Translations under genes and position numbers: made by a program
Shown: positions 1 through 63,984 of the stretch, piece after piece
Layout: each line of letters begins with the position of its first letter
Position numbering within the stretch: position 1 is the stretch's first letter
From: a virus
Strand: one strand, 5' to 3'
Virus record (IMG/VR): IMGVR_UViG_3300012933_000155
Span: 32,001-96,000 of that record
DNA: 64,000 nucleotides
The notes under the pieces: model-generated
Told to the model about the DNA's origin: nothing
The model's input: only the letters and a program-made list of their open reading frames with translations
Databases searched by the model: none

Positions 1-13
1 ATAAGGATAGAGA

Positions 14-1049: not shown

Positions 1050-1355
1050 ATGGATACCGAAGACCTTATTAAAGAAGCCAAAGCAAGATTTAGCCATAAC
1101 AGTGCTAAAGCACAACTTGCAGACAAATACAAAAGCAAACTATCCATTGCCGAACAAGGTGGATTATGGAACATTACCCCTGAACTACTTAGCTTCTTAG
1201 CTAGTTTAGAACAAGAACGTGTCGTAATTATCGATACATTCAACAACCCCGTAAAAGTCGACCGGAGAGAGTTATTAGTTAAGCTATTAACTACTTACAA
1301 TTCCGTTATGGAACAATGGCACAAAGAGTGGACTGAGTTAGAGAACAAAAGATGA
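1050..1355 (+). CDS. Hypothetical protein
   Basis: TAAATA at 1029-1034 and AGGAG SD upstream; ATGA overlap with next gene. Confidence 0.75.
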   Translation: MDTEDLIKEAKARFSHNSAKAQLADKYKSKLSIAEQGGLWNITPELLSFLASLEQERVVIIDTFNNPVKVDRRELLVKLLTTYNSVMEQWHKEWTELENKR

Positions 1356-2946: not shown

Positions 2947-3268
2947 AGAGATTTATATTGAATTACCTGAGTTTGTTCCGCCCGAATTACGTCTATATTA
3001 TGATGACAACGGCTCAGTAATATGTTATACTTGTGATATACTTGAAGGGAACTATATTATAGTCACCCCTGACGTATTTGCACAAGGTCGACCCGATATT
3101 AAAGTAATTGACGGTAAAGTACAAGAGAAGTTCAACGGCTTAGTGTTGTCGATACTAGAGAAATCTACTACAGGAACAACTACTGTGTTTGATGATATCA
3201 GTATTGTAGTTGACAGTGAGTACAAGGGAAAGACACAACAATGGGAATTAAAGCATTATGAGTTATGA
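2939..3268 (+). CDS. Hypothetical protein in glycosyltransferase operon
   Basis: Overlaps both neighbours; 109 aa. Confidence 0.65.
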   Translation: MDEEIYIELPEFVPPELRLYYDDNGSVICYTCDILEGNYIIVTPDVFAQGRPDIKVIDGKVQEKFNGLVLSILEKSTTGTTTVFDDISIVVDSEYKGKTQQWELKHYEL

Positions 3269-8536: not shown

Positions 8537-8589
8537 GGTTGCGGCAGTAGGCTAAAAATACAACAACTACTTAGCTGATTAAATATCGT

Positions 8590-8685
8590 ATGTTTATAAT
8601 TAATTTCTTCAAGCGTCTTGTACGTGAATACCAGTACCGTAAAAAGCTAAAAAAACTACGTGACAGAGACCCATTTATCTATTGA
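8590..8685 (+). CDS. 31-aa basic peptide upstream of carbamoyltransferase (not in ORF track)
   Basis: MFIINFFKRLVREYQYRKKLKKLRDRDPFIY; TAAATA at 8580-8585; stop 1 nt before next ATG. Confidence 0.6.
   Translation: MFIINFFKRLVREYQYRKKLKKLRDRDPFIY
8632..8645. repeat. Right arm of 14-bp inverted repeat
   Basis: cagtaccgtaaaaa. Confidence 0.8.
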
Positions 8686-8686
8686 T

Positions 8687-10168: not shown

Positions 10169-10189
10169 CCGTAAGAGTAGGTAATAATA

Positions 10190-12883: not shown

Positions 12884-12884
12884 T

Positions 12885-12980
12885 ATGAACTATATTCTAT
12901 GGACAATCGTTTTAGTATTGGGATGTATTGCAGTGTACTGGTTAATTGACTGGCACGACAAGTTTCCTGACGGTGAGTAA
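12885..12980 (+). CDS. 31-aa single-TM peptide (not in ORF track)
   Basis: MNYILWTIVLVLGCIAVYWLIDWHDKFPDGE. Confidence 0.5.
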   Translation: MNYILWTIVLVLGCIAVYWLIDWHDKFPDGE

Positions 12981-12995
12981 ATGGGTAAGTAACTA

Positions 12996-13024
12996 TTGAC
13001 ATAATCCTATGGGTGTGTTATAGT
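12996..13024 (+). promoter_or_regulatory. Sigma70-type promoter of tmRNA gene
   Basis: TTGACA-17nt-TATAGT. Confidence 0.85.
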
Positions 13025-13095
13025 ATGAGTTATTGCTGTATGAAGCAAAGAGAAAAGTGTTCTGGACGCGGGTTCGACTCCCGCCAGGTCCACCA

Positions 13096-13180
13096 GCAAG
13101 AATACTGTTCGCACCAAATAATTGCGAAAAAATAGTGGCGTAGTTCTAGACTATGGATCATTAGCAGTATTCTTACTAAT
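13096..13180 (+). other. tmRNA intervening segment
   Basis: aagaatactg (13098-13107) pairs with cagtattctt (13165-13174), closing the spacer between CCA and the +1 G. Confidence 0.8.
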
Positions 13181-13327
13181 GGGCCTGTCATGGTTTCGAC
13201 AGGGCAACAAGTAAACAAGTGGACAGCAGGGTAATGTGAAAGCCCTTAGGATTGGGGGTAAGAGTACAGTAATGTCATGTCAATATGATATCAGTATTTC
13301 CCGGTCGCAGAAGCAAAAAACTTAAAT

Positions 13328-13360
13328 GCAAATGACGAAAGTTACGCATTGGCCGCTTGA
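13328..13360 (+). other. tmRNA tag reading frame ANDESYALAA*
   Basis: gca aat gac gaa agt tac gca ttg gcc gct tga taa. Confidence 0.92.
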
Positions 13361-13404
13361 TAAAAGCGTCCTGGGGTAAGACATACCTCGCAACAGAAAC
13401 TCAG

Positions 13405-13430
13405 AAAAGGCTCTTCGGAGCCTTTTTCTT
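13405..13430 (+). terminator. Rho-independent terminator after ssrA
   Basis: aaaaggctc-ttcg-gagcctttt followed by T-run. Confidence 0.9.
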
Positions 13431-13477
13431 TGTCAACGTAATGTAAGGCAAAGGCGTTGTATATATAAGGAGCTTAT

Positions 13478-13612
13478 ATGCAACTAACTAAACCCAAAGA
13501 ACATTCCGACGACAAGCCTAGCAAGTACGAGACAATTTTTCTAATTAGAACTTGCTCACGAGGTTGCCCTAATTGCGACAAGAAACGCATAGGAACATGT
13601 CAGTGTAAGTAA
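13478..13612 (+). CDS. 44-aa Cys-rich peptide (not in ORF track)
   Basis: AAGGAG SD; ...TCSRGCPNCDKKRIGTCQCK. Confidence 0.6.
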   Translation: MQLTKPKEHSDDKPSKYETIFLIRTCSRGCPNCDKKRIGTCQCK

Positions 13613-13621
13613 CCTTTTTTG

Positions 13622-13649
13622 TTGCACTAGTCCTAGAATAATATATACT
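13622..13649 (+). promoter_or_regulatory. Sigma70-type promoter
   Basis: TTGCAC-16nt-TATACT; ATG 7 nt downstream. Confidence 0.55.
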
Positions 13650-13655
13650 AGCACT

Positions 13656-13964
13656 ATGAGTAACGAAACAGCTAAATTTATCAACAGCCAACGCCGTCAC
13701 AAAACGGACGTTCACATTGCTAGACAAGTGAAGATTGCCAGACAAAGTTTGTCACATGACACTTCTAAAGTTGCTAGACAACCACACCGTTTAGCAAAAC
13801 GACATGCTATGGATTGCGGTAATCCAAAGTGCTATCTATGTGGTAACCCACGCAAAACTCACAAAGACAAATTAACAGCGCAAGAAAAACGTTTGTACCA
13901 AGATGTAGATAAGACTACTGATAGACATTCAAACGGACTTCCGTCAACAGACATTGATGAATAA
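13656..13964 (+). CDS. Basic hypothetical protein with CGNPKCYLCGNPR motif
   Basis: Putative Zn-binding motif; own promoter and terminator. Confidence 0.7.
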   Translation: MSNETAKFINSQRRHKTDVHIARQVKIARQSLSHDTSKVARQPHRLAKRHAMDCGNPKCYLCGNPRKTHKDKLTAQEKRLYQDVDKTTDRHSNGLPSTDIDE

Positions 13965-13967
13965 TTT

Positions 13968-13990
13968 AGGGCACATAGGTGCCCTTTTTT
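13968..13990 (+). terminator. Rho-independent terminator
   Basis: agggcac-atag-gtgccct followed by T-run. Confidence 0.8.
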
Positions 13991-14089
13991 GTTGCATAAC
14001 CTAATATATACGTATATAATGTATCTCATAGAGCACTAAGTAAATGTTCTGAGTGCTCTACTCAAGTGCTCTAGTATAGAAAGAAGGAA

Positions 14090-14455
14090 ATGTCAAATTT
14101 AGGTTGTTTTACTTGTTTAAGTTGTGGAAAAGTTAATCCTATCAAAGGTCACTCATACACTAACAAGTACTGTAATAATAGTTGCCAACAAGAACACCAA
14201 CGCAGAAACAAGGCGTTTGAGAATGTTCAGAAATGGAAAGAATCAGCTACGCCACAAGCGTGGGCAAAGATTCCCGAGTGGGTAAGACAGTACTTGATTA
14301 ATCAAAGAGAACATCGTTGCCAGGAATGTGATAACACACATCATAACGGTCTAGCTATCCCATTAGATGTAATCTATAAAGATGGTGACAGTTACAACAA
14401 CAAAGAAGATAATCTAATGTTGATATGCCCTAATTGCAAGTCACAAAGAAAATAA
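14090..14455 (+). CDS. HNH-endonuclease-like zinc protein, probably degenerate
   Basis: CxxC, YCNNSCQ, CQEC...LDVIYKDGDSYNNKEDNLMLICPNCK; HNH His positions replaced by Y and K. Confidence 0.65.
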   Translation: MSNLGCFTCLSCGKVNPIKGHSYTNKYCNNSCQQEHQRRNKAFENVQKWKESATPQAWAKIPEWVRQYLINQREHRCQECDNTHHNGLAIPLDVIYKDGDSYNNKEDNLMLICPNCKSQRK

Positions 14456-14479
14456 TTCATTAACATAAAGGAAATTAAA

Positions 14480-15025
14480 ATGAAAACAATCGGCGATAAA
14501 ATCACAAGTTTTGCAGTCACAGGCGTTAAGCCAGGCGCACTCACACCAGATGGCGCATTCGAAACAATTACTGAAAAGAGTTTTGAAGGCAAGTGGAAAG
14601 TAATTGTTTACTACCCAAAGGACTTCACATTCGTGTGCCCAACTGAAATCGTAGCATACGACAAATTGAATGGCGACTTCGCAGACCGCGATGCTGTTCT
14701 AATGATTGGCTCTACTGATAATGAATTCTGTAAGTTGGCATGGCGTAATGCACATGAAGACTTGAAGAAGACTAACTCATGGTCATTCGCAGACGTGGCA
14801 CGTGATGAGAACAGCTTGGCAGAACAATTGGGTATCTTCTATGGTCCAGCAGGTGCGGCACTTCGTGCAACATTCATCGTTGACCCAGACAACATCATCC
14901 AACACGTTACAGTCAACAACTTGGACGTTGGTCGTAACCCAGACGAAGCATTGCGTGTACTTGACGCATTGCAAACTGGCGAGTTGTGCCCATGCTCACG
15001 CCCAATCGGTGGAGAAACATTGTAA
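14480..15025 (+). CDS. ahpC: Peroxiredoxin AhpC
   Basis: YYPKDFTFVCPTE; RATFIVDP; LQTGELCP. Confidence 0.95.
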   Translation: MKTIGDKITSFAVTGVKPGALTPDGAFETITEKSFEGKWKVIVYYPKDFTFVCPTEIVAYDKLNGDFADRDAVLMIGSTDNEFCKLAWRNAHEDLKKTNSWSFADVARDENSLAEQLGIFYGPAGAALRATFIVDPDNIIQHVTVNNLDVGRNPDEALRVLDALQTGELCPCSRPIGGETL

Positions 15026-15543
15026 TGACTGCTTGGGTAGACGCACTTAAAGAGTCTAGTATTCCTGACTATGCTAAGGATACTAAACTAAACATTGACG
15101 CTGTAATTAAGCGTAGTACTCTACCTGTTGAAGAAGCGGAAGCTGTTGCCCTCGCGGCAGCTTTTGCTACTGGCAACAGTAAGTTGTGGACTTGGATGGA
15201 AAGTCAAATTGAAAACAAGACTGAAACACAAGCCGCATTAACAGCAGGTGCATTGATGGCACAAAACAACATGTGGTATCCATTTGTTGAAATGGCTGAC
15301 GATGAGAACTTGAAGGGCTTGCCCGCACAACTTCGCATGAACGCTATCACAACAAGCGGTGGCACAACTAAAGAACGATTTGAAGCATATTCATTGGCTG
15401 CAAGTATCGTTGGTAAGTGTCACTTCTGTGTGAAAGCACACTACGAAGGATTGAAGAAGATGGGCTACACTGTAGAACAACTTCGTGATATCGGTCGCAT
15501 TGCAAGTGTCATTAATTCAGTAGCAAAAGTGGTAGCAAACTAA
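15025..15543 (+). CDS. ahpD: Alkylhydroperoxidase AhpD
   Basis: EAYSLAASIVGKCHFCVKAH (CxxC); TAATG coupling to ahpC. Confidence 0.9.
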   Translation: MTAWVDALKESSIPDYAKDTKLNIDAVIKRSTLPVEEAEAVALAAAFATGNSKLWTWMESQIENKTETQAALTAGALMAQNNMWYPFVEMADDENLKGLPAQLRMNAITTSGGTTKERFEAYSLAASIVGKCHFCVKAHYEGLKKMGYTVEQLRDIGRIASVINSVAKVVAN

Positions 15544-15544
15544 A

Positions 15545-15937
15545 ATGGCAAACATGGCAGAGTACTTTGAAAAGAATCGTTATCATGGCTCATATGAGTT
15601 CGGTGAACGAGTTTTCGGTTATTACAATAAGATTCCTTTCATTGGCTCTGTCGGTAGTGACAGTGTAAGGAGTATGGATGAAGGTCCTATCATCACTGTC
15701 ACACTTGATTTGCCCATTAGTGTTGATGGACAATCAAAAAATGTTATAATTGTAAAACACAAAGACATTAAATCTTTGTTGAGAGATTACGATGCGTCGG
15801 GAGTTCCAAAGGCCGGAGCGACTGATTCTAAACCAGTAGGTAGTGGGTTCAATTCCCATCCGACGCACCAAGAACAACCAAAGTCTAATAGTAAATCACT
15901 GTTAGAAAACTTAAAGAAACTTAAAGGTAAAAAATAA
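15545..15937 (+). CDS. Hypothetical protein whose 3' third overlaps a tRNA gene
   Basis: Open through 15794-15870; stop overlaps next start (TAATG). Confidence 0.65.
   Translation: MANMAEYFEKNRYHGSYEFGERVFGYYNKIPFIGSVGSDSVRSMDEGPIITVTLDLPISVDGQSKNVIIVKHKDIKSLLRDYDASGVPKAGATDSKPVGSGFNSHPTHQEQPKSNSKSLLENLKKLKGKK
15794..15870 (+). tRNA. tRNA with CUA anticodon (putative amber suppressor)
   Basis: Acceptor GCGTCGG/CCGACGC, A73, encoded CCA; D stem GTTC/GAGC with GG in loop; anticodon loop TT-CTA-AA; 5-nt variable loop; T arm GTGGG-TTCAATT-CCCAT. Non-canonical G8, C14 and A31:C39. Confidence 0.8.
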
Positions 15938-16182
15938 TGGATATGGATAATGCGGCAGTTTTCTTAGCCGGTACAATCTTATATGCTATTGGTTTGATTG
16001 TGATTCTAGCAGCCACTATCTTCGCAAACAACTTGATTCACAAATATTGGAAATCATTTGGCTGGTCATGGTTCCCTGCATTCTTGCAACACGATGCACC
16101 GAGATTCATGTCACCGGAAGAAGCTGCAAAGATTGACCCATCGGTAGATCCAATCAGCGGTGAAAAGCATAAACCAAAATGA
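15937..16182 (+). CDS. Small membrane protein
   Basis: N-terminal hydrophobic segment. Confidence 0.7.
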   Translation: MDMDNAAVFLAGTILYAIGLIVILAATIFANNLIHKYWKSFGWSWFPAFLQHDAPRFMSPEEAAKIDPSVDPISGEKHKPK

Positions 16183-35720: not shown

Positions 35721-35973
35721 CATACCCATTAACGATGGATATGTGTATGAGAGTCCAGACGGTGGTAATACAATTTACCGCCGTCTTCCTGGTGAGAGTG
35801 AGCGTGAATTGTATTACGAATCACCAAAAATAAAATCATTACATGAAAAATTAATGGAAGATAAGCTGTGGGGCGAGATTCGTAGACTTGCAAAAACGAA
35901 TCATGCATTAAAAGATGCAGTGGATAAAGTAATCACGGTGTACAATTTGGTGAAAGATAATGAAAGAACTTAA
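35710..35973 (+). CDS. Hypothetical protein (YESPDGGxTIYRR)
   Basis: ORF; GTG start inferred. Confidence 0.65.
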   Translation: MTINIPINDGYVYESPDGGNTIYRRLPGESERELYYESPKIKSLHEKLMEDKLWGEIRRLAKTNHALKDAVDKVITVYNLVKDNERT

Positions 35974-36229
35974 CCCAATCGCTTGGTTCGGGACCCGAGA
36001 AACATTAACTGTCCCCAGACATTTTGTTAAAGCTAGTACACCACGTACTGATGAATCATATCAATGGGTTCTTACCAAATTGCAAGGTAGATTTTGTGTC
36101 TCGACTGATATGAAATCATCCAATGCCGTACTTGACTTTTCCCAATATTTCTATTTTGAAGATAGCGGTGAAGCAATGATGTATGAATTGCGCTGGTCAG
36201 GACACTCAGGAAATAATTCACTGTTCTAA
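35960..36229 (+). CDS. Dispersed L[RK]W-family small protein
   Basis: FYFEDSGEAMMYELRWS. Confidence 0.7.
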   Translation: MKELNPIAWFGTRETLTVPRHFVKASTPRTDESYQWVLTKLQGRFCVSTDMKSSNAVLDFSQYFYFEDSGEAMMYELRWSGHSGNNSLF

Positions 36230-53422: not shown

Positions 53423-54487
53423 ATGAAAATAACGCCTACGACAAAGGAACAGTTAGTCTATTACATGTTGCAAAATATTAGTTTAGGAACCTACGATAAT
53501 AAGTTCCTCACTAACCTGCAAGAAAATCTAGTGTCACGTAAAAACCCAGTGACTAGTAATCAGGCTGACTTGCTAACCAAAATTACACTACGTTATTTCA
53601 AGCAGTTCAAAAAGCATGAGATTGACGTAAATGAAATGGCTATGCTCCCATGGTCAACTCAACCAATATTGAGTTCACCCCAATACACTAGTGCCTTTTG
53701 TGTAGTGGAAGATGATGTACTGAAGATTAGAAGTCCGTACAATACTGAGTTTATCAGTGAAATCAGAAAAATGCCAGTAACAGCAGATTGGGACAAAGAC
53801 ACAAAAACATGGTCTATGCCTTACTGCGAAGTTACTGCAAAACATGCAATAGAGTGTATAACAAAAAACTATGAAGTAATTAACTTCTGCCCAGTATTAA
53901 CAGAGGTCATAGATACTTTCGCTAAATATGAGACTGCACAACACTGGGATCCAATTTACTTGAAAGTAAACGGCAACTATATGATTGCTTGTATTACTAA
54001 GCAGATACACGAAATTGTAAGTAATGTCACGCTAGATGCAAGTCCTGCAACACTAGCGTTACTCACTTCACTGGGTATTAATATTTCAAATGAAGTAGTA
54101 CTAGACGCATGTGCTACACTGGACAATACGTTATCAGGACACAAACTCATCGATTTTGCTACATCAATGTCATCTACTATCATTGATGAGAATTGTATGG
54201 ATGAGTTAGCATTGTACTTGAAAGAAATTAAATCAGATTTTGTTCTAATCGTTGACACATACAAAGAAAAGAACAGAGTACATACGAAAAAGTTGCATGA
54301 CCTTTTGACCGGCATGAACGTAAACACACATCTTGTTACCAGACAAGATAAAGCAGAGCTAGACTTCTCATCTTACAATTTGCCAGTGATTGTTAATTCA
54401 TCATTGTGGGGTGTAGGAAGTTTTTCTAAGATTGCAAAATGCAAGACTGTATTCTTAGGCAACAATAAACCGATTGAGATTAAATGA
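53423..54487 (+). CDS. Hypothetical protein with HARP-like segment, upstream of helicase
   Basis: IRSPYNTEFISEIRKMP...WDKDTKTW. Confidence 0.6.
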   Translation: MKITPTTKEQLVYYMLQNISLGTYDNKFLTNLQENLVSRKNPVTSNQADLLTKITLRYFKQFKKHEIDVNEMAMLPWSTQPILSSPQYTSAFCVVEDDVLKIRSPYNTEFISEIRKMPVTADWDKDTKTWSMPYCEVTAKHAIECITKNYEVINFCPVLTEVIDTFAKYETAQHWDPIYLKVNGNYMIACITKQIHEIVSNVTLDASPATLALLTSLGINISNEVVLDACATLDNTLSGHKLIDFATSMSSTIIDENCMDELALYLKEIKSDFVLIVDTYKEKNRVHTKKLHDLLTGMNVNTHLVTRQDKAELDFSSYNLPVIVNSSLWGVGSFSKIAKCKTVFLGNNKPIEIK

Positions 54488-55971
54488 AAGAATGTAAACT
54501 AATTATTAGAGATGAAGTCAACGTAAAAATTGAAGGTCTGGAGCTGGGAGACCGCAAAGCGTTGATGAAGAAGTTTGAGTATGAGAAGCCTGGTGCAAGA
54601 TATTTGCCGAGTGTCCGATTAGGTCGCTGGAACGGCAAGATTAGTTATTTCAGTCTAGGAGGTTCAACATACGTCAACTTGCTACCTGAGATTCTACCAA
54701 TCTTAGACCAAGCAGGATATGACATTGAACTAGAAGACTTGCGTGAGTATTCTACTACGTTTAACTTCACCGAATTCAAAGAAGATAGCTTTGCTGAACA
54801 TCTATGGCCTGCAAAGCATCCAATGGCAGGTCAGCCTGTTATGATTCGTGACTATCAACTTGATATTGTTAACAACTTCTTAAAGAACCCACAAGCATTA
54901 CAAGAAGTAGCGACAGGCGCAGGTAAGACAATTATGACTGCGGCTCTGAGTTATTCAGTACAAGCATACGGTCGTAGTATTGTTATCGTCCCTAACAAAG
55001 ACTTGGTTACACAGACCGAACGTGATTACATTAACGTAGGATTAGATGTTGGTGTGTACTTCGGTGACAGAAAAGACTTTGGTAAGACACATACGATTTG
55101 CACATGGCAAAGTCTTGGCAACATGTTGAAGAAAACAAAAGCAGACGAAGCAGAAGTTTCCATTCAAGACTTTATTGAGGGTGTAGTGTGCGTTATTGTT
55201 GACGAAGTTCACATGGCTAAAGCTGATGTGTTGAAAGAACTATTATCTACTGTAATGTCACACATCCCAATTCGCTGGGGATTGACTGGAACTATTCCCA
55301 AGTCTGATTTTGACTATAAAGCTATCATGGTTTCATTGGGTCCAGTCATCGGACGTTTGTCTGCAAAAGAATTGCAAGACAAAGGTGTGTTGGCACAGTG
55401 TCACGTGAACATCATTCAGTTACAAGATAAAGTTGAATTTAGTAACTATCAGTCTGAGTTGAAGTACCTACTTGAAGATGACAAACGGTTAACAACTATA
55501 TGCCAACTGATTGAGAAGATTAAAGAGACCGGCAACACGTTGATTCTAGTTGATAGAGTTGGCGCTGGTAAACAAATTCAAACCAGACTTAGTGAAGCAT
55601 TCACAAAAGCTAGGTTAGATTATGAGGTAAGTTTCGTATCGGGCGAGACAGGATTAGCAGAAAGGAAAGAACAGTATGATGAAGTGGCTACAGCTACTAA
55701 CAAAGTTATTGTGGCGACTTATGGTGTGGCCGCTGTGGGGATTAATATTCCTAGGATTTTTAATCTGGTTCTTATGGAACCCGGAAAGAGCTTTGTCCGA
55801 GTTATCCAGTCTATTGGACGCGGTATTAGAAAAGCAGAAGACAAAGACCACGTGCAAATCTGGGACATAACCAGCAGTTGCAAGTTCGCAAAAAGACACT
55901 TGACACAACGCAAGACCTTTTATAAGGATGCAAATTATCCATTCTCGATTGAGAAACTTGACTATAAATGA
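54484..55971 (+). CDS. uvsW: SF2 DNA helicase UvsW
   Basis: RDYQ, ATGAGKT, VDEVH, GLTGT, QSIGRGIR. Confidence 0.93.
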   Translation: MKECKLIIRDEVNVKIEGLELGDRKALMKKFEYEKPGARYLPSVRLGRWNGKISYFSLGGSTYVNLLPEILPILDQAGYDIELEDLREYSTTFNFTEFKEDSFAEHLWPAKHPMAGQPVMIRDYQLDIVNNFLKNPQALQEVATGAGKTIMTAALSYSVQAYGRSIVIVPNKDLVTQTERDYINVGLDVGVYFGDRKDFGKTHTICTWQSLGNMLKKTKADEAEVSIQDFIEGVVCVIVDEVHMAKADVLKELLSTVMSHIPIRWGLTGTIPKSDFDYKAIMVSLGPVIGRLSAKELQDKGVLAQCHVNIIQLQDKVEFSNYQSELKYLLEDDKRLTTICQLIEKIKETGNTLILVDRVGAGKQIQTRLSEAFTKARLDYEVSFVSGETGLAERKEQYDEVATATNKVIVATYGVAAVGINIPRIFNLVLMEPGKSFVRVIQSIGRGIRKAEDKDHVQIWDITSSCKFAKRHLTQRKTFYKDANYPFSIEKLDYK

Positions 55972-55977
55972 TATAAT
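55949..55977 (+). promoter_or_regulatory. Sigma70-type promoter
   Basis: TTGAGA-17nt-TATAAT; ATG 7 nt downstream. Confidence 0.65.
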
Positions 55978-55983: not shown

Positions 55984-56484
55984 ATGCGAATTTTAACATT
56001 AGACGATACCTATTACAACTTAGAAACACTACCCGAAGAAGTAGATGATTTGCGCTTTGCTATACTTGATAACTCAAACCCACAAAACGTAGACTATCAT
56101 TATATCCCACTTATCTTCTTAGAGAGTTTCAATTCACCTGCACTTGTTTTGCGAGTAGGTGACAAGACTATTAAGATGCCAGTAGATTGGCAAATCTTAA
56201 TCGGTGAACCTGAAATGGGTGACCTAGAAACATTGCCACTAACAAGTATCAATGACAGAGGATTCAAAGCATTTGAGTTTAACCCGCTCTCAGCATTTAG
56301 ACCTAGCTTTCAAGATATCGAGATTGTTGATATCTATCACGATGTAACTTGGTATGCACCTCGATTAAAGAATGGGCAGTTCTTATGCGTACCCATTGAT
56401 GATACTCCGAAACCTAGATGTATCTATTTTGTTAAAGACATTAGTAGAAATTGTGAAATCGTAGACTATCAACAGGCTTGGTAA
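55984..56484 (+). CDS. Hypothetical protein
   Basis: 166 aa ORF after uvsW. Confidence 0.75.
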   Translation: MRILTLDDTYYNLETLPEEVDDLRFAILDNSNPQNVDYHYIPLIFLESFNSPALVLRVGDKTIKMPVDWQILIGEPEMGDLETLPLTSINDRGFKAFEFNPLSAFRPSFQDIEIVDIYHDVTWYAPRLKNGQFLCVPIDDTPKPRCIYFVKDISRNCEIVDYQQAW

Positions 56485-57080
56485 TGGCAACAAAGAAACC
56501 TGCAACACCTAAAGACGAAAAATTTGAGAAGCAAGACTTCGACTTGTTCGAGGCACTCTCAGCATTGGATCGTAAAGATTATACATACTTAGACAACTTA
56601 ACAGACGAGCAACAACGAAAGTTCGTCCCGTACATGATGACACATTGGATGAGTACTGTTAAAGACAACGGTGGAGTTCAAGGTTATTATGTGTTGAGTA
56701 CAGAGTATGCCGCTAACAAACACTTATTCAACGAGCATGTACAGAAACATCCTAAACTACAATGGTTGATGCTGTGCGCGGCAAGTCCTGGCTTAGGTAA
56801 GAAGTTCCATCAATGGATTCCTCACTTGTCTAGCAAAGTAGCAACATTGAAAGAGTCTCCTAAACTCAAAGATGTTAAAGACTATTACGCAAAGATTTAT
56901 CCCAAGGCTGCTCCTAGCGACTTAGATATGCTGGCAGAAGTGTTTGTAGACGAACACAAAAAGAAAGTGTATCTTGCAAAAAGATTCCCCGAATTAAAAT
57001 TATCCGACATTGAAGTATTAGCACAGACAGTAACAGATGATGACATTAGAGCATACGAAAGAGACCTTGGCAACGACTAA
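56484..57080 (+). CDS. Possible clamp-loader small subunit (T4 gp62-like)
   Basis: FVPYMMTHWMS...KHPKLQWLML...HQWI resembles gp62-type proteins (recall only). Confidence 0.45.
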   Translation: MATKKPATPKDEKFEKQDFDLFEALSALDRKDYTYLDNLTDEQQRKFVPYMMTHWMSTVKDNGGVQGYYVLSTEYAANKHLFNEHVQKHPKLQWLMLCAASPGLGKKFHQWIPHLSSKVATLKESPKLKDVKDYYAKIYPKAAPSDLDMLAEVFVDEHKKKVYLAKRFPELKLSDIEVLAQTVTDDDIRAYERDLGND

Positions 57081-57753
57081 GTACACCTGCGAGTTTTGTA
57101 ATAAAACATTTGCACGTGAGCGTACATTAGTTAGCCATCTTTGTGAGAAGAAACAACGATGGCTTAACAAGGATCATCCTGGCAACAGAATCGGGTTTCA
57201 AACTTGGGTTCAGTTTTACTCTAAACACAGCATGAGTAGGACTAAGAACAAAACGTATGAAGAATTTATTAACAGCCCGTACTATATTGCGTTTGCCAAG
57301 TTCGGTAGTTATTGTGTAGACACTAAGGTGTTGAACATTTCATTCTACGTTGATTGGCTTCTTAAAGAACAATTCAAACTAGATTCATGGACGAGTGATA
57401 CAGTGTACAACAAGTATTTGTGTCATTACTTGCGGCATGAGGATCCATTCGATGCTATCTATCGAGGTGTTGAAAACTGTTCCGAATTAGCAGAAGCAAA
57501 TAGTATTCAACCTAATGACGTATTTCGGTACGTTAACGCAAATCGGGTATGTCAGTACATCATAAACGGTAAAATATCACCATGGATGTTGTTTCAAAGC
57601 GACAGTGGTATCCGTTTTCTAGAGACATTAAATCAGGATCAAGTTACAATAATACTTGATTACATTAGTCCAGAACAATGGAAGTTGAAGTTTAACCGAG
57701 AGCCAGATGTTACTAGAAAAATACGAGACACCCTCAAAGACGCAGGGTACTAA
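57037..57753 (+). CDS. Zinc-finger protein (C2H2/C2HC-like N-terminus)
   Basis: YTCEFCNKTFARERTLVSHLC. Confidence 0.7.
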   Translation: MMTLEHTKETLATTKYTCEFCNKTFARERTLVSHLCEKKQRWLNKDHPGNRIGFQTWVQFYSKHSMSRTKNKTYEEFINSPYYIAFAKFGSYCVDTKVLNISFYVDWLLKEQFKLDSWTSDTVYNKYLCHYLRHEDPFDAIYRGVENCSELAEANSIQPNDVFRYVNANRVCQYIINGKISPWMLFQSDSGIRFLETLNQDQVTIILDYISPEQWKLKFNREPDVTRKIRDTLKDAGY

Positions 57754-57937
57754 AGTCACGCTTGAGTGGCGGCATGGACGAGACAATACTGAATCATGGA
57801 ATGAGATTTGCGCTTGGGTAATCGAGCAGTTTGGAATGCCTGGAACACTTTATACATGGCATCCAACAGAAGATTATATGCAGTTTTACTTTCATAGAGA
57901 ACAGGATGCGATTCACTTTATGTTGAGGTGGGCATGA
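57707..57937 (+). CDS. L[RK]W-family small protein
   Basis: AWVIEQFG...FYFHREQDAIHFMLRWA. Confidence 0.75.
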   Translation: MLLEKYETPSKTQGTKVTLEWRHGRDNTESWNEICAWVIEQFGMPGTLYTWHPTEDYMQFYFHREQDAIHFMLRWA

Positions 57938-58257
57938 ACAAACTACATGTATACCAAGATAACTTGTGCAAGGAGATAGTAATGACTGCACAAACACAAC
58001 TATGTACGCTTGGTGTCTATTATGCCCCTTACATGCCAAAGATTATGAAACCTAAATATCAATTCAGTCGTGCTAACTGGTTCAAAGCAAATTTTGACCA
58101 TAGAAAATACAATGAGGTACAAGAATGGTGTACTGACAACTTTGGTCCGCAGCCCAGATTTCCTGATGCATGGAGTCGCTGGGTACACACTTACGAAGAC
58201 CAGATTTTCTTTAGAGATAGCAAAGATTACGAATGGTTTATGTTACGATGGAGCTAA
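57934..58257 (+). CDS. L[RK]W-family small protein
   Basis: EWCTDNFG...FFRDSKDYEWFMLRWS. Confidence 0.75.
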   Translation: MNKLHVYQDNLCKEIVMTAQTQLCTLGVYYAPYMPKIMKPKYQFSRANWFKANFDHRKYNEVQEWCTDNFGPQPRFPDAWSRWVHTYEDQIFFRDSKDYEWFMLRWS

Positions 58258-58258
58258 A

Positions 58259-58696
58259 ATGAATTTGAATCACTTAACAGATAATGAACTTATCGACCAC
58301 ATCATTCGCTATGATGAAGACCCTGTGCGAGTTCGCCTTGCTACAATCATGCAACGCACTAAAGGTGCAATCATTGACGACTTAGAGTATGCGGGTATGG
58401 ATGATACATTCTGTAACTTTAAAAGCATTGTGAACGGGTGTGAGTACCATCCCGGACAGTATATCAGTCATCTTGAAGGTGAAATTGAGCACTTGTGGTT
58501 TATGTCAGAGCAAGACCAGAAAGAAATCAAGAACCTACAAGCAAGAACTATAATGGACGTCTTTGCTGAGTTAAAGCAAGAAATCAAGACGGCTGAGTAT
58601 TCAAAAGAACTAGCAATCAAAGACCGTGCTGCTGCTGAGAAGCGGGAACAAGACATGAAGCACAAACTTGACATGTGGGCAATCTTGCAACGATGA
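58259..58696 (+). CDS. Coiled-coil hypothetical protein
   Basis: Start ATG 58259 after GGAG. Confidence 0.7.
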   Translation: MNLNHLTDNELIDHIIRYDEDPVRVRLATIMQRTKGAIIDDLEYAGMDDTFCNFKSIVNGCEYHPGQYISHLEGEIEHLWFMSEQDQKEIKNLQARTIMDVFAELKQEIKTAEYSKELAIKDRAAAEKREQDMKHKLDMWAILQR

Positions 58697-59010
58697 TTAC
58701 TAGCATCTGGTACAACATCGAAGATAATACGCCCACTGTAGAGGGTTATTACCTTGCGTACAAGAAACCGTCGTTAGGTGATGATAGTGAAGGATACGGT
58801 GTATATTATTGGTGTCAGCGAGAAAGATGCTGGAGAGAATCTGCGGCGCTCCATTCATATGGTCTTAGAGTTACTCTTTGGTCAGAACTACCGGCACATG
58901 ACCCATATAATTCCACTGACCATTCACCTAGTGTTGCAGAAGTTGATGCTTGGCGTAATGTAGAGGATGCTATTAGTAAGTTCAACATGATAAAAGAATT
59001 GAGTAGATAA
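58693..59010 (+). CDS. Hypothetical protein (DUF551-like W...P...GxYL...W pattern)
   Basis: WYNIEDNTPTVEGYYL...VTLWSELP. Confidence 0.6.
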   Translation: MITSIWYNIEDNTPTVEGYYLAYKKPSLGDDSEGYGVYYWCQRERCWRESAALHSYGLRVTLWSELPAHDPYNSTDHSPSVAEVDAWRNVEDAISKFNMIKELSR

Positions 59011-59279
59011 TGGAATACTTTTATGGTGGCGGCGGCAACAATCGTCCTGTATTTAATCACAGATTCAAAGTTAAACAGTGTACTACTGAAATGCACAAGT
59101 GGGCAACAGCGTATCCTGAGAAAGGTCCCTTCAGTCGTTGGCACGTTGAGTGGGCTAGTGTCTATGGTACAATGGATAGACCAAGAGACTTTGACATTGT
59201 TCAGTTTGAACACAGCGAGGCAGCTAAAATCTTTAGAATCGCATTTGCCGGCGAGTACGAGGAAGTAGCATGGCTGTAG
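59010..59279 (+). CDS. Divergent L[RK]W-family protein; only TAG-terminated gene seen
   Basis: KWATAY...QFEHSEAAKIFRIAF; ends CTG TAG. Confidence 0.65.
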   Translation: MEYFYGGGGNNRPVFNHRFKVKQCTTEMHKWATAYPEKGPFSRWHVEWASVYGTMDRPRDFDIVQFEHSEAAKIFRIAFAGEYEEVAWL

Positions 59280-59506
59280 CTTCAAAGTACGATTATTGGT
59301 CGTTGCTGCGAATTCTCTATAAAGAGTATGAGAAACAATATACTGGATACTATGAACCAACGTGGACGGGTAAGAGTGATAGCTTTGACAAGTATGTTGA
59401 AACCCAGTATGGAATGCAAGTTAGCTTTGTTGATGGGATGATTACACAAGATTTTTCAATTGTAGATGAAGGTAAGTATGCGTGGTGCATACTCAAACAT
59501 AAATGA
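59270..59506 (+). CDS. L[RK]W-family protein (DExKY subtype)
   Basis: FSIVDEGKYAWCILKH. Confidence 0.7.
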   Translation: MAVASKYDYWSLLRILYKEYEKQYTGYYEPTWTGKSDSFDKYVETQYGMQVSFVDGMITQDFSIVDEGKYAWCILKHK

Positions 59507-59946
59507 AATTACGACTTAAAGCCCGAATCAGAAAGTATCTTGCTGACCGCAAGCTGAAAAATAGTGGCTATCGTTCTTGGCGTGTGTATCGTCATAACCG
59601 TGACCCTGATGTTGTGCGTTATGCTGACAAAGTAAGTGACTTCTACAAAAACTACAAATATGTGTATATGTGTGAAGGTGGCACAGCACATTATGCTTAC
59701 AGCGTAGTACATGATTATGGTCCAGGTGGATTAGTATTCGGATATGAAGAAATGCGTGATTGGTGTGAAAGTAAATGTAGATTCAAGTATCGGGTAGACA
59801 TTCATAGAGGGTTGAAACAAACTGGTCTAGGTATTAACGGTGAAGAATATCCTGATTATTACTTTAACGATATTGGTGGAAGTGACCTAGTGTTCTTTGC
59901 TTTTATGGATGAGCAAGACTATATCATGTTTAGGTTGAGGTGGTGA
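59503..59946 (+). CDS. L[RK]W-family protein, long form
   Basis: DWCESKC...FAFMDEQDYIMFRLRW. Confidence 0.75.
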   Translation: MKLRLKARIRKYLADRKLKNSGYRSWRVYRHNRDPDVVRYADKVSDFYKNYKYVYMCEGGTAHYAYSVVHDYGPGGLVFGYEEMRDWCESKCRFKYRVDIHRGLKQTGLGINGEEYPDYYFNDIGGSDLVFFAFMDEQDYIMFRLRW

Positions 59947-60206
59947 TGAAAGAACCTTTTATTATTAGAGAAAAGTTTCTAGTAGAAGTTGGTAGACCAT
60001 GGAAAGAGCCTTGGGCTGAGTATTTTCAAAACTTTTATCTTCATTGTCAAGAAATAGCAATAAAGAATAACTGGGTGGTTGATACAGTAGCAAACACTGA
60101 ACTAAAGCCACTAGGTGGCAAACTAATCAAAACTAAAACACAAGGTTGGTATCTACGTTGGGATGATGAAAAGTCTCATACATTTTTTGTATTGAAGTGG
60201 TCATGA
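59946..60206 (+). CDS. L[RK]W-family protein
   Basis: LRWDDEKSHTFFVLKWS. Confidence 0.75.
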   Translation: MKEPFIIREKFLVEVGRPWKEPWAEYFQNFYLHCQEIAIKNNWVVDTVANTELKPLGGKLIKTKTQGWYLRWDDEKSHTFFVLKWS

Positions 60207-60400
60207 AACAATACGGCATAGCAATTGAGAATTGGCCAGCATCTCGTAAAGTAGATGTTAAATGGTGGTTGCTTGAAAACTTTGGACCTGAAGACTCTCC
60301 TACACAAAAGGGGCGTTGGGGCTGTGCGTATGACTATGGGTTAGACAATATCTACATGAATGAAGATGTTTTTATAATGTATCAATTGAGGTGGGGTTGA
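60203..60400 (+). CDS. L[RK]W-family protein
   Basis: WWLLENFG...IMYQLRWG. Confidence 0.75.
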   Translation: MKQYGIAIENWPASRKVDVKWWLLENFGPEDSPTQKGRWGCAYDYGLDNIYMNEDVFIMYQLRWG

Positions 60401-60597
60401 TGGAAGTCTTTTACGTCACTTGGCAAACTGAAACCCCACATCGTTGGTGTGTAACATGCCCAAGTTTGCCGGCTGAAGACCAGTATGAACGAAGAAACTG
60501 GTGCTACTCACAAGAAATGAATTTTGTGAATGTAGGCGTAAGATTCTGGTTCGTAGAAGAAAAAGATGTTATAATGTTCAGATTAAGGTGGGAATAA
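60400..60597 (+). CDS. L[RK]W-family protein
   Basis: NWCYSQ...FWFVEEKDVIMFRLRWE. Confidence 0.75.
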   Translation: MEVFYVTWQTETPHRWCVTCPSLPAEDQYERRNWCYSQEMNFVNVGVRFWFVEEKDVIMFRLRWE

Positions 60598-60800
60598 TGG
60601 AATATCAAAGATACCCTCAATACACTAGTAACTGGACTAATGTTATTGTAGATCCAGCTTGGCGCGAACCAATCAAAGGTGAACATATTGCTTGGCTAAA
60701 AGCACACGAAGGTGGGTACTATCATCTTCATCGTAATGCCACTGCTGTTAAGTTTGAGCGCAAAGAAGATGCTGAATGGTTTATATTGAGGTGGCTGTGA
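60597..60800 (+). CDS. L[RK]W-family protein
   Basis: AWLKAHEG...KFERKEDAEWFILRWL. Confidence 0.75.
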   Translation: MEYQRYPQYTSNWTNVIVDPAWREPIKGEHIAWLKAHEGGYYHLHRNATAVKFERKEDAEWFILRWL

Positions 60801-61045
60801 TGGATTTAGAACTTGTAAAAACTATTGTAGCTAGGCAAGGACAGAACGAGTTTCTGAAAAATCCCATCGTACTGCCACCTGAAGCAAAAGTTGTCACCGG
60901 TCAAATCAAAGAAGATGCTTACTTGCATTTTCTAGAAACTACATGCGGTGTAGAGGTACTGTTGTCAGAATACCATCACGAGATAGTTGGGTACAATGTC
61001 ATTGATGAAAAGAAGTTTTCTTGGTTTGTATTGAGGTGGAGTTAA
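60800..61045 (+). CDS. L[RK]W-family protein (DExKY subtype)
   Basis: YNVIDEKKFSWFVLRWS. Confidence 0.75.
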   Translation: MDLELVKTIVARQGQNEFLKNPIVLPPEAKVVTGQIKEDAYLHFLETTCGVEVLLSEYHHEIVGYNVIDEKKFSWFVLRWS

Positions 61046-61392
61046 TGTTAGAAAAGATAAACAGAATGTTAAGTGTGTTCGGTGGAAAGGTCCAAGAACA
61101 AGCTACTGAAAAGTTTACTAAGCCCGGTGACCCATTTAGCCCATTTAAAGTAGAAAACGGGATGGTTGGGTTCAAGCCTTACCTAATTGTTGAGAATCAA
61201 AACGAAACTGTGTTATACTCTAATCATAAGTGTGTAGCAATTGATGTTAGCCCAAATGTTGAAGAATGGATACTTAATCAACCCCCGCACTTGTGGAAGT
61301 ACGCAGATGATACCTATGATTGTCATTATGCTATGACAAGATTTTTAGTAAATGAAGAATTATTAACTTGGATGACACTAAGATGGGCGTGA
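61045..61392 (+). CDS. L[RK]W-family protein
   Basis: EEWILNQ...VNEELLTWMTLRWA. Confidence 0.75.
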   Translation: MLEKINRMLSVFGGKVQEQATEKFTKPGDPFSPFKVENGMVGFKPYLIVENQNETVLYSNHKCVAIDVSPNVEEWILNQPPHLWKYADDTYDCHYAMTRFLVNEELLTWMTLRWA

Positions 61393-61688
61393 AACAATTT
61401 ACGGCTAACTATTCGATGAAAGCTGGTGATAACGACTTAGATACAATTGCAATAGCATACGCAAAGATTATCCAAGAAGAAATTGACAATGAGATTATGA
61501 TTGACATGCTGAAAATGAACGGTTGGATAGTTGTAAACCTTGAACGATTCAAAGACATGAAGCATCCGATTGATGTCCAAGACTGGTGTACTGATAACAT
61601 AGGTGATGGTAACTGGAAAAACTTAGGGCCTACGTTCTTGTTCCGTGAGAGCAAACATGCTGAGTGGTTTAGTCTACGATGGACATGA
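61389..61688 (+). CDS. L[RK]W-family protein
   Basis: DWCTDNIG...FLFRESKHAEWFSLRWT. Confidence 0.75.
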   Translation: MKQFTANYSMKAGDNDLDTIAIAYAKIIQEEIDNEIMIDMLKMNGWIVVNLERFKDMKHPIDVQDWCTDNIGDGNWKNLGPTFLFRESKHAEWFSLRWT

Positions 61689-61942
61689 CGTTTGGTGAAG
61701 GTCGTGTTTATGGCTCACGATATTATACTGTTGAACCTACAATCAGCTGGGATCTAACCGGTGATTGGGGGAATATAAATTCATGGTCACAGATGGAAGA
61801 ATGGTGTATTAGTACATATGGTTCAACCGGAGAGATATGGGGAGACGAACAGCCCGTACTACAACGTTGGTATATGAATAATGCAAAGTTTTGGTTCAGA
61901 GAGAAAAAAGATTTAGAATGGTTTGTATTGAAATGGAGTTAA
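61685..61942 (+). CDS. L[RK]W-family protein
   Basis: EWCISTYG...FWFREKKDLEWFVLKWS. Confidence 0.75.
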   Translation: MTFGEGRVYGSRYYTVEPTISWDLTGDWGNINSWSQMEEWCISTYGSTGEIWGDEQPVLQRWYMNNAKFWFREKKDLEWFVLKWS

Positions 61943-61943
61943 A

Positions 61944-62192
61944 ATGATTAATGTAGAAGTTACACCCGAATTGATTACCAACATAACACGTGCAGTACGT
62001 GCATGGAAAAGAGACACGGTTCCTTTAGAAGACGAAGAACAACACTTTGATACTTTTTGCAAAGAAGAACATGGCTTAGATGTTGAGTTCGGACAGAACG
62101 GTCACATCGTTGTAGTACTGGGTGCTACCATTGTTGACGAAGAAAAATACATCAACTTCTTACTAAAGTTCGGGAATATGCACGATGACTAA
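61944..62192 (+). CDS. L[RK]W-family protein (DExKY subtype)
   Basis: TIVDEEKYINFLLKFG. Confidence 0.7.
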   Translation: MINVEVTPELITNITRAVRAWKRDTVPLEDEEQHFDTFCKEEHGLDVEFGQNGHIVVVLGATIVDEEKYINFLLKFGNMHDD

Positions 62193-62478
62193 TGATATGA
62201 AAAACGCAGTGAAGCAACGCAAGATACAAGAGTTAGGTAGTTTCAACTACTGGACTGAGAATTACTATGGTAGTAAAAGGAATATCACTACTATAAGTTG
62301 GAAGGGCAAGGGTGAGGTTGATGGCAATGAAATTCGTCAATGGTGTATTGATAGATTTGGTAAGAGTGGTTACCGAGAAGATATCGAAGATAGCTACTGG
62401 GTTGACAATACAGAGTTTGGAGAAATCATGTTATGTAAGGATGAGTTCCTTACAGCGTTTCTATTGAGGTGGACTTGA
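62185..62478 (+). CDS. L[RK]W-family protein
   Basis: QWCIDRFG...KDEFLTAFLLRWT. Confidence 0.75.
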   Translation: MTNDMKNAVKQRKIQELGSFNYWTENYYGSKRNITTISWKGKGEVDGNEIRQWCIDRFGKSGYREDIEDSYWVDNTEFGEIMLCKDEFLTAFLLRWT

Positions 62479-62732
62479 AAATTGATTGGACTAGAAGTCT
62501 AGGGTGGAATTTAGATAGAGCAGAAATGGAACGTACTGACATTATCACTGATGGAGCAGATTGCTATCCATGGAAAGAAACGTTTGTCATATGGCCTCGT
62601 AGAAGCATCACGGGTGCTCCCTTGTTTTGGACAAAAGCATATAAGCGTAAGGTTTGGGTAATATGGGGCTCGGGTTTTCACATGGAACCTGAAGTACAGT
62701 ATGCTACGGCATTTGATATATTGTCTCTATGA
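62475..62732 (+). CDS. Trp-rich hypothetical protein
   Basis: TTG start after GAGGTG. Confidence 0.6.
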   Translation: MKIDWTRSLGWNLDRAEMERTDIITDGADCYPWKETFVIWPRRSITGAPLFWTKAYKRKVWVIWGSGFHMEPEVQYATAFDILSL

Positions 62733-62977
62733 TAACGATAACACTTAAACACGGACTAACCCCAGCTAGTGAGCAATGGCTTGCGAAGAACATCGGACCA
62801 CGTATGCACTACATTCATAATTCAATAGGTGGAGAAGGTTGGATAGCAAAACAACACAACGAGCAAGTAATAATGCATGACGAAGGTGGGAGTTACACCA
62901 GACACCAAAGAGTTTGGAAACTAACACTAGAAGATGAACGTTTTGCTAGTTGGTTTTTAATAAAGTTTCCACAATGA
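62729..62977 (+). CDS. L[RK]W-family protein
   Basis: QWLAKNIG...LEDERFASWFLIKF. Confidence 0.7.
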   Translation: MITITLKHGLTPASEQWLAKNIGPRMHYIHNSIGGEGWIAKQHNEQVIMHDEGGSYTRHQRVWKLTLEDERFASWFLIKFPQ

Positions 62978-63192
62978 AAGAAATTAAAGCTGAGGGCTGG
63001 CGCTCACATCAAGCACTAGAAGTAGTCAGTGCCCTAAAAGAACAAGGTTATGTTATGGGCGTAGACTTTGATTGGGAATATCATAAACCCAAACGTGATG
63101 ACACTACGTATCAGTTAGTGTATAATAGACATACCGTGTTTAGATTCTATAAAGATGAACTAGCAACATGGTTTAGTTTAAGGTATCTATAA
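62974..63192 (+). CDS. L[RK]W-family protein
   Basis: FRFYKDELATWFSLRYL. Confidence 0.7.
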   Translation: MKEIKAEGWRSHQALEVVSALKEQGYVMGVDFDWEYHKPKRDDTTYQLVYNRHTVFRFYKDELATWFSLRYL

Positions 63193-63479
63193 TGGCAATA
63201 TCAAGTATCGGAAGAAGTACAGGGACATTCGCTCCTTACACATCTATTGCTACTCAGTCGGATCGCACTGAAGTTCGCCGTTACGATGGAAGCGGTCGCA
63301 TGGTTCATGTAATTGACCTAGCATACCAAAAAATTAACGAATTAGAATACATCAAATGGTGTCGTAGAAACTTAGGCGACAGACATGATGGTTGGGACTT
63401 CTGGTTAGTCGGTGGACTCTTGTACATCGAAGTTTGGGGCGAGAAGCAAAAGTTTACCTATGAGATGTGGAAAAATTAA
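63192..63479 (+). CDS. Divergent L[RK]W-family protein
   Basis: KWCRRNLG...EKQKFTYEMWKN. Confidence 0.65.
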   Translation: MAISSIGRSTGTFAPYTSIATQSDRTEVRRYDGSGRMVHVIDLAYQKINELEYIKWCRRNLGDRHDGWDFWLVGGLLYIEVWGEKQKFTYEMWKN

Positions 63480-63772
63480 TGAACGAACTAGTAGCAGTAA
63501 ACGGCATAATTCAATCAGTGAACCAGTACATGAAGATAAGTGACAGGATCATCTTTCACCAAGCACCAGAGGCTGGTGCAATCATTTCTATCATGTCCGA
63601 AGAAGAAAGATTTGAATATAGGGCTGATGGGTCTACTTATGCGTTTCCTTGGCCAGCAAGTGAACGGGTAATGTATAAACAGTTCATGGAAGAAGTGTAC
63701 AAAAACAGAGATAACCCAACAGTTAAAGACCAACTAGAGAAATTGAAAGTGGTGATGGAGTTAGTAAGATGA
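63479..63772 (+). CDS. Hypothetical protein
   Basis: TAATG coupling. Confidence 0.65.
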   Translation: MNELVAVNGIIQSVNQYMKISDRIIFHQAPEAGAIISIMSEEERFEYRADGSTYAFPWPASERVMYKQFMEEVYKNRDNPTVKDQLEKLKVVMELVR

Positions 63773-63984
63773 ATGTAGCGAAAGAAAACATGTGGCGTAA
63801 TTTACAGGGACTAAAACCTGTACAGTCATGGAAATGCAAATTGAATTGGCATAAGTGGACTAATTACGAAGTCGTAGAACCTAGGAATGAGTTCAGTAAC
63901 CGCATGTATGCAGTATGTCATTGTGCAGATTGCGGAATGCCTAGAATTGAACAACCTTTTACAAAGAGTATAAAAAATGGCTAA
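63769..63984 (+). CDS. Small Cys/His protein (CKLNWHKW...CADC)
   Basis: Paralog of 53128..53349. Confidence 0.65.
   Translation: MNVAKENMWRNLQGLKPVQSWKCKLNWHKWTNYEVVEPRNEFSNRMYAVCHCADCGMPRIEQPFTKSIKNG

Follow-up and report, generated by a model that had tools for sequence, protein, structure and literature searches.

An array of small, tail-bearing paralogs, apparently chained and exchanged as single-gene cassettes, in a RaK2/PA5oct-type jumbo phage

In the hyperplastic regions of T4-type phages, PeSL cassettes mediate the shuffling of modules (Arbiol et al. 2010, PMC2839356; Comeau et al. 2014, PMC4122927), and Bacillus phage G carries about 35 copies of a zinc ribbon that represent a lineage-specific expansion (Iyer et al. 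2021, PMC7824862). Here we describe a locus that resembles both, an array of small genes on the + strand at positions 57707-63479 of a 64,000-nucleotide (nt) stretch of viral DNA, termed the window, which comprises bases 32001-96000 of a 135-kb IMG/VR viral contig (IMGVR_UViG_3300012933_000155) rated 39% complete. As in the T4-type phages, runs of small non-core open reading frames (ORFs) lie between core genes, and single-gene modules move at conserved border sequences; as in phage G, a small domain is present at tens of copies in one jumbo-phage lineage, and its function is a matter of guesswork. Most of the encoded proteins end in a short tail, typically Leu-Arg-Trp (LRW). On balance, we consider it probable that the array represents a lineage-specific multigene family of small single-domain alpha/beta binders, chained and exchanged as cassettes, in a jumbo phage of the RaK2/PA5oct type.

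The array forms an unbroken chain of 21 ORFs of 65-147 amino acids (aa) joined by stop/start overlaps, within a longer series (55984 to 63984) in which each + strand gene overlaps or abuts its successor. Most array genes start at an ATG that overlaps the preceding stop codon, not at the upstream GTG or TTG of a mechanical ORF list. A preliminary description of the locus, made from the sequence alone, had reported about 17 packed small paralogs with stop/start overlaps and a common C-terminal tail; the packing was borne out, the start codons taken from the mechanical list needed revision, and the number is fair because most genes start at the overlapping ATG, with 15 profile-supported, one probable and two possible members. 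The tail [FLIMV]-[RK]-[WFY] occurs within three residues of the stop in 15 of the 21 array ORFs, as compared to 7 of about 816 six-frame ORFs of at least 45 aa elsewhere in the 135-kb contig (Fisher p = 2e-22). Leave-one-out searches with a hidden Markov model (HMM) built from the 15 members gave E < 1e-4 for seven of them, 1e-3 to 5e-2 for six, and about 1 for two. Recovery of 13 of 15 members at E < 0.05 indicates that homology reaches beyond the tail, to the middle helix with W-C-x3-F-G and the Trp of strands 2 and 3. Judged by these profiles, one family accounts for 15 of the 21 ORFs; among the other six are one probable and two possible members, and the remaining three are passengers without relation to it. 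The ORFs are as follows, with E values from the leave-one-out search unless stated otherwise.

57707..57937, +, member 1, 76 aa, LRW tail written TTG AGG TGG; E 4.5e-9
57934..58257, +, member 2, 107 aa, best-conserved paralog line, with a W-C-x3-F-G helix; E 3.1e-9
58259..59010, +, two unrelated passengers, 58259-58696 and 58693-59010; hhalign 0.2% each
59010..59279, +, possible, very diverged member, 89 aa; hhalign 26%, helix region only
59270..59506, +, probable member of the DExKY subtype, 78 aa, tail LKH; hhalign 82%, E 1e-5
59503-59946, +, member, 147 aa; E 0.002
59946-60206, +, member, 86 aa; E 1.1
60203-60400, 60400-60597 and 60597-60800, +, short members, 65-67 aa; E 0.044, 1.7e-6 and 0.0032
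60800-61045, +, member, DExKY subtype; E 0.0023
61045-61392, +, member; E 0.008
61383-61688, +, member, start ATG formed by the A of the previous gene's Arg codon and TGG; E 1.2e-5
61679-61942, +, member, start ATG formed in the same way; E 3e-7
61944-62192, +, member, DExKY subtype, tail LKF plus seven residues; E 0.95, BLAST to 60800-61045 8.5e-4
62185-62478, +, member; E 3e-5
62469..62732, +, passenger cassette, non-member by hhalign, 98% aa identical to positions 11027-11281 of a related contig (L003:11027-11281)
62729-62977, +, member, tail IKF; E 0.0052
62974-63192, +, member, tail LRY; E 0.0015
63192..63479, +, possible member, W-C-x3-L-G helix in the middle, without tail; hhalign 64%, E 7e-5 over 19 columns
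35954..36229, +, isolated ORF away from the array, possible member, strand-helix tail with LRW followed by 10 residues; HMM E 0.003, C-terminal part only

The two members with E values of about 1 are 59946-60206 and 61944-62192. The latter is joined to the family through BLAST links inside the DExKY subtype, and the former only by an LKW tail together with weak BLAST matches (best E 0.003); their hhalign scores (97.5% and 97.7%, respectively) are circular, both genes being part of the profile. The probable member 59270-59506 has BLAST links to 60800-61045 and 61944-62192. The DExKY subtype noted in the preliminary description is real and comprises 59270, 60800, 61944 and, in part, 62729. The mid-protein W-C-x3-F-G motif, which the preliminary description had presented as shared, occurs in about seven to nine members rather than in every one. 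Chance ORFs were considered as a reading of the array and rejected.

The last codons of the array genes appear to carry a second message, namely the translation signal of the following gene, a feature that the preliminary description had missed. AGG is the Arg codon of 8 of the 11 Arg-containing terminal tails in the window (p = 6e-10), and of 41 of 57 when six non-redundant related loci are included (p = 2e-45), as compared to 3.8% of the Arg codons in the long ORFs of the contig and 6 of the 106 internal Arg codons of array genes. All six TTGAGGTGG 9-mers of the 135-kb contig are located at ends of array genes. A tail encoded by TTG-AGG-TGG supplies a GAGGTG Shine-Dalgarno sequence 5-8 nt before the next ATG: the latter begins 8 or 11 nt past the first base of the Arg codon, which places GAGG 5 or 8 nt upstream, and an ATGA, TGATG or TAATG overlap of start and stop forms at those junctions. 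Since AGGA, GGAG and GAGG motifs are enriched upstream of the long ORFs of the contig, the phage evidently uses Shine-Dalgarno sites. In a second type of junction, an Arg or Lys codon ending in A (AGA, CGA, AAA) is followed by TGG and thereby spells ATG. Such codons are found at 24 of 68 coupled junctions, and in most of these 24, A plus TGG is the start of the next gene, with a 10-nt overlap. The starts at 61383 and 61679 are examples, and a database protein (P0001) begins exactly at the former.

The tail is also retained as a protein motif. In the absence of a coupled downstream gene, LRW is still found, its Arg then being encoded by CGC, CGT or CGG, and in the array of the cultured Sinorhizobium phage Phosso the Arg of the tail has frequently given way to other residues, with Leu and the helix preserved; the motif therefore is under both protein and nucleotide constraint. 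Codon choice shows that the ends of the array genes are under constraint as nucleotide sequence, in that their last codons would give either a Shine-Dalgarno sequence or the ATG of the next gene. The window contains no tRNA-Arg gene, and hence none for AGG. The Phosso array (locus L015, Phosso 1-16000) is interleaved with tRNA genes, among them tRNA-Arg(CCT), the reader of AGG.

The family is old. The closest pair of paralogs in the array shares 42% identity over 47 residues in BLAST comparisons, which argues against recent amplification. Orthologues were sought in related viral contigs, retrieved with the member 2 protein as query. Each array gene with an orthologue in these contigs showed a ratio of nonsynonymous to synonymous substitution (omega) of 0.05-0.5, indicating that the array genes are real, selected proteins; constraint on them is somewhat looser than on the flanking core genes, whose omega is 0.04-0.15. 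The preliminary description had pictured a compact scaffold diversified for many targets in a gene accordion, with anti-defence, host takeover or RNA binding as putative functions. Diversification into paralog lines and variable gene content between relatives agree with the data, whereas an accordion of recent, near-identical copies does not, considering the divergence even of the closest pair and the existence, for each line, of separate orthologues that are subject to purifying selection.

Divergence along the locus is uneven. The upstream core genes are collinear with those of the closest relatives, at about 77% nucleotide identity and synonymous divergence (dS) of 1.1-2.6 (mostly 1.3-2.5), whereas identities of array genes range from 66% to 96%, several of them having a dS of only 0.19-0.56. 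The orthologues of member 2 in L002-L004, for example, share 90-93% aa identity at a dS of 0.19-0.38, and those of 59503-59946 and 59946-60206 in L006 share 90% and 85%, respectively. The passenger 62469-62732 differs from its L003 counterpart by a dS of 0.22, and in L003 is located five genes earlier, among other neighbours; its breakpoints are within 3 nt of stop/start overlaps, and in the window the ATG of the moved cassette has been changed to TTG at the breakpoint. The passenger 58693-59010 is also placed differently in L003, with breakpoints exactly at the ORF limits. L003 moreover has three members that are missing from the window, while 60400-60597 and 60597-60800 lack orthologues in the related loci, and the sole counterpart there of 60203-60400, in L011, is 40% identical. 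Blocks of similarity begin and end 1-9 nt from stop/start overlaps. The only recurrent DNA in the array consists of 27-47 nt around the junctions and of the codons for W-C-x3-F-G; long DNA repeats besides these were not found. The comparison shows related phages to differ by insertion, loss and transposition of exact single ORFs at the junctions.

Same-strand runs of family genes are present in all ten related contigs, with 6-19 members in nine and two in L004, a 6-kb contig that ends after its two members; a complete 364-kb relative has 23 members in two arrays. Neither megablast of the array nor tblastn of member 2 yielded a match among cultured phages, and copies in cultured phages surfaced only in profile searches of whole records. 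Phosso gave 25 profile matches at E <= 1, 14 of them at E < 1e-3, with an array at 2.8-14 kb and tails such as F-K-L-R-W and F-K-L-A-W. Two weak matches were obtained in Atu_ph07 and one distant copy in PA5oct (gp237, 71 aa, with an altered tail), and SCTP-2, RaK2 and 121Q showed no family match at E <= 0.01. With copies expanded in Phosso and few or none in the other cultured relatives, the expansion is lineage-specific.

At E <= 1e-3, a profile of the family matched 788 clusters of 50%-identity representatives; their lengths are almost without exception 50-160 aa, and the match nearly always extends to the last residue. In agreement with the preliminary description, which recognised no named family, Pfam and PHROGs searches with ten members gave no match, a Pfam search with 47 family members gave scattered sub-threshold matches only, the family profile matched nothing among PDB sequences below E 0.9, and a word-index search returned no name beyond "hypothetical protein". 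Neighbours in the ESM Atlas are 90-100% viral and belong to unnamed clusters throughout, and the family is seemingly restricted to viruses. Literature searches found no paper on it, and it goes unmentioned in the survey by Iyer et al. (2021, PMC7824862) of expansions in jumbo phages. A search for longer fused forms of the family found none, which is weak evidence. A database protein of 143 aa (P0094) contains two tandem LRW domains, both ending in F-K-L-R-W, and looks like a read-through fusion of two adjacent cassettes. Some longer homologues of 57934-58257 (P0008, P0014, P0024, P0148) have an N-terminal stretch of about 50 aa, Y-Q ... G-R-Q-[ST]-G-K-S, which shows weak similarity to the Walker-A region of terminase large subunits (phrog_2, E 0.012 and 0.026); it may be a terminase fragment fused to the LRW domain, or reflect insertion of a cassette beside terL. 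The members contain 1-9 Trp residues, 5-9 in most proteins of the main type. Their isoelectric points range from 4.5 to 9.1 and their net charges from -10 to +6, most being acidic; a role as DNA mimic was rejected, the charge not being uniformly acidic.

The AlphaFold2 model of 61679-61942, representing the main type, is a beta-beta-alpha-beta-beta-alpha sandwich with a predicted local distance difference test (pLDDT) score of 78. Independent predicted models of homologues from uncultured phages superpose on it with template modelling (TM) scores of 0.72-0.74 in BFVD (E down to 1e-5) and of 0.76-0.81 in the ESM Atlas. Foldseek found no match to the main-type model in the PDB at E <= 0.001. The structural neighbours of the predicted fold share a common arrangement; they are generic and give no clue to function.

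Conserved genes assign the contig to the RaK2/PA5oct/Atu_ph07/121Q group of jumbo phages. The following genes precede the array.

54484-55971, UvsW-like helicase, upstream of the array chain
55984..57753, +, three conserved genes of unknown function (phrog_11279, phrog_11758, phrog_11058) with PHROG and Pfam matches, which head the same chain of overlapping genes

The phrog_11058 protein, encoded just upstream of the array, is matched by proteins of 93 cultured phages of the group at 22-34% identity, those of Phosso and PA5oct being closest. In all 93, the phrog_11058 gene adjoins the gene of the UvsW-like helicase. The protein itself (57037-57753, +) has an N-terminal C2H2-like zinc-finger motif, with sub-threshold Pfam matches to zf-met and zf-C2H2_jaz (E ~1e-3). 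The order of helicase and conserved unknown genes recurs in PA5oct, Phosso, Atu_ph07, SCTP-2, RaK2 and 121Q; in the cultured relatives, the UvsW-like helicase is followed by three or four conserved unknowns, one to three small genes, a piece of the DNA polymerase III (Pol III) alpha subunit, and the primase. It is this variable slot of the replication cluster, bounded by the phrog_11058 gene on one side and the split Pol III alpha gene on the other, that the array occupies.

An extended -10 element, TG-n-TATAAT, is located at 55966-55977, 7 nt before the ATG of gene 55984; it is kept in four of five related loci and differs by one base in L003. We do not rely on it as a promoter, since it lies inside the coding end of the helicase gene, where coding constraint may explain its conservation. 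Terminator-like sites in the array were not above the expectation from shuffled sequence, and an Rfam search of 54-64 kb found nothing. The chain ends with the gene of a small Cys-rich protein (63769-63984, +) with four Cys residues in a C-x-C-x2-C pattern, conserved in L002, L003 and L011 and a non-member by hhalign. Beyond the end of the window, before the split Pol III alpha gene, an ORF (G000:C1:96423-96911) encodes F-x-F ... E-D-A-E-x-F, which recalls the family tail; the family HMM does not support its membership (E 1.1).

Several steps would connect these observations. A ribosome that finishes one array gene may re-initiate on the next, and because of such re-initiation each gene could be a self-contained cassette that needs no promoter, its tail driving the downstream neighbour. 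Since the tail spells the ribosome-binding site or start of the next gene, whole genes might be swapped without breaking expression, and the conserved junction would be the place where recombination exchanges cassettes in frame. The proteins may act as stoichiometric binders with a Trp-rich hydrophobic core and variable N-termini and loops, each paralog line having its own conserved partner in the host or phage replication or expression machinery, perhaps in host manipulation or counter-defence. We favour such a repertoire of small binder proteins because a Trp/hydrophobic core combines with variable N-termini and loops and with varied charge, and because stable orthologous lines coincide with presence/absence variation among close relatives and with restriction to viruses; the spread of isoelectric points is an indirect point for diverse partners. 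A bolder version, speculative and rather unlikely to hold as a whole, is that the LRW tail might be at once the end of the fold, the start signal of the next gene and a homology patch for in-frame recombination, so that plug-and-play cassettes, free of promoter and integrase, would re-deal binders against host defences or machinery.

A number of observations weigh against the binder account. No homology links any member to a partner or phenotype, and purifying selection and stable orthologous lines would fit housekeeping phage functions equally well. The replication genes of PA5oct are middle/late (PMC7318152), and the array, situated among replication genes, is by position not in a classic early region. 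A scan for sigma-70 promoters yielded 37 sites versus 28 +/- 5 expected by chance, which is not above chance, and coupling and re-initiation between array genes are deduced from the junctions as written in the DNA. On the structural side, the best VIA-align Z of the main-type model was 5.4 (ACT, ferredoxin-like, BMC and DCoH sandwiches), while a best value of 7-8 is typical for models without a clear match, and the model of the DExKY subtype reached a pLDDT of 48, too low to confirm its fold, with an alpha-beta-beta-alpha arrangement in its C-terminal half.

The alternative that survives best, improbable in our estimation, takes the proteins to be small RNA- or single-stranded-DNA-binding factors for phage replication or expression, which would use the open face of a four-stranded sheet in a circularly permuted ferredoxin/RRM-like fold. 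The location of the array in the replication cluster, flanked by the UvsW-like helicase and the split Pol III alpha, would suit such a role, and the predicted order of elements is a permutation of beta-alpha-beta-beta-alpha-beta; KH, EF-G domain and aIF2 alpha/beta sandwiches are among the structural neighbours (Z 4.4-4.8), and Trp, Tyr, Phe and Lys/Arg are abundant in the strands, each protein having 5-9 Trp. However, the mostly acidic and widely varying net charge is unlike that of a uniform nucleic-acid binder, all structural Z scores are at noise level, and neither an RNP-type motif nor a match to an RNA- or DNA-binding family in Pfam, PHROGs or the PDB profile search was found.

Could the genes be mainly selfish cassettes, spreading between co-infecting phages by recombination at the junctions while the phage itself gains little? 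The gain, loss and transposition of exact ORFs, some of them shared far more recently than the flanks, and the unrelated passenger ORFs in the same chain are what such elements would leave behind. Yet purifying selection acts on the protein sequence of each member for which an orthologue exists, hundreds of clusters retain the core of the fold, all relatives examined have kept arrays, and the proteins of 65-147 aa contain no nuclease, integrase or other mobility function, which makes this view quite improbable. That the family represents minor virion or internal, ejected proteins in many variants is highly improbable: jumbo phages of the group do scatter many small structural proteins among their replication genes, as exemplified by the genes marked by electrospray ionization tandem mass spectrometry (ESI-MS/MS) beside the PA5oct primase and by gene 15 of 121Q in the same slot, but the members lack signal or cleavage motifs and vary widely in charge, and PA5oct gp237, the only member in a phage with published virion proteomics, has no ESI-MS/MS note while its neighbours have one.

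The family of exchanged small binders, which we continue to regard as the probable reading, would be of interest beyond this phage. Much of any jumbo-phage genome consists of small genes without a known function, and here hundreds of them share a signature, a predicted fold and a rule of chaining and exchange. The rare-codon data point to dual coding, that is, a protein motif and a translation signal that co-evolve in the same nine bases across a family of paralogs, and a tail of this kind could guide the design of promoter-less synthetic operons. With at least 14 copies in the cultured phage Phosso, and with PA5oct gp237, the function of the family is open to ordinary genetics and pull-downs.

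Each of the known systems accounts for a part of these properties. The PeSL cassettes of T4-type phages consist of an intergenic promoter and a stem-loop and provide each ORF with its own promoter, whereas the array has no intergenic DNA, and its border motif is located inside the coding sequence, in the last three codons and the stop/start overlap, as a putative signal of translation rather than transcription; most modules, moreover, are paralogs of one family. Translationally coupled operons likewise have ATGA or TAATG overlaps, and here, too, the apparent Shine-Dalgarno sequence lies inside the upstream gene at 5-9 nt. Unlike in the usual coupled operon, the Shine-Dalgarno sequence or the start codon is written in a conserved structural motif of a whole paralog family, a rare AGG codon is fixed for the signal, and 15-20 such junctions follow one another. 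The zinc ribbons of phage G differ in that the present domain is predicted to be an alpha/beta sandwich without metal ligands, and occurs in phages of group 2.2 (RaK2/PA5oct-like). The predicted sandwich has the element order and size of DCoH (pterin-4a-carbinolamine dehydratase, PCD), ACT and ferredoxin-like proteins, but with Z scores of only 4.4-5.4 (4.4-4.5 for the DCoH/PCD structures 1uso, 2ebb and 4low, without sequence match), 0-15% identity and no shared motif, the resemblance is one of arrangement only. In large eukaryotic DNA viruses, too, multigene families, and in poxviruses the gene accordion, consist of tandem paralogs that are thought to face the host. Unlike the poxvirus accordion, the array contains no near-identical copies (maximum 42%), and it would change by exchange of cassettes between phages instead of by breathing in copy number.

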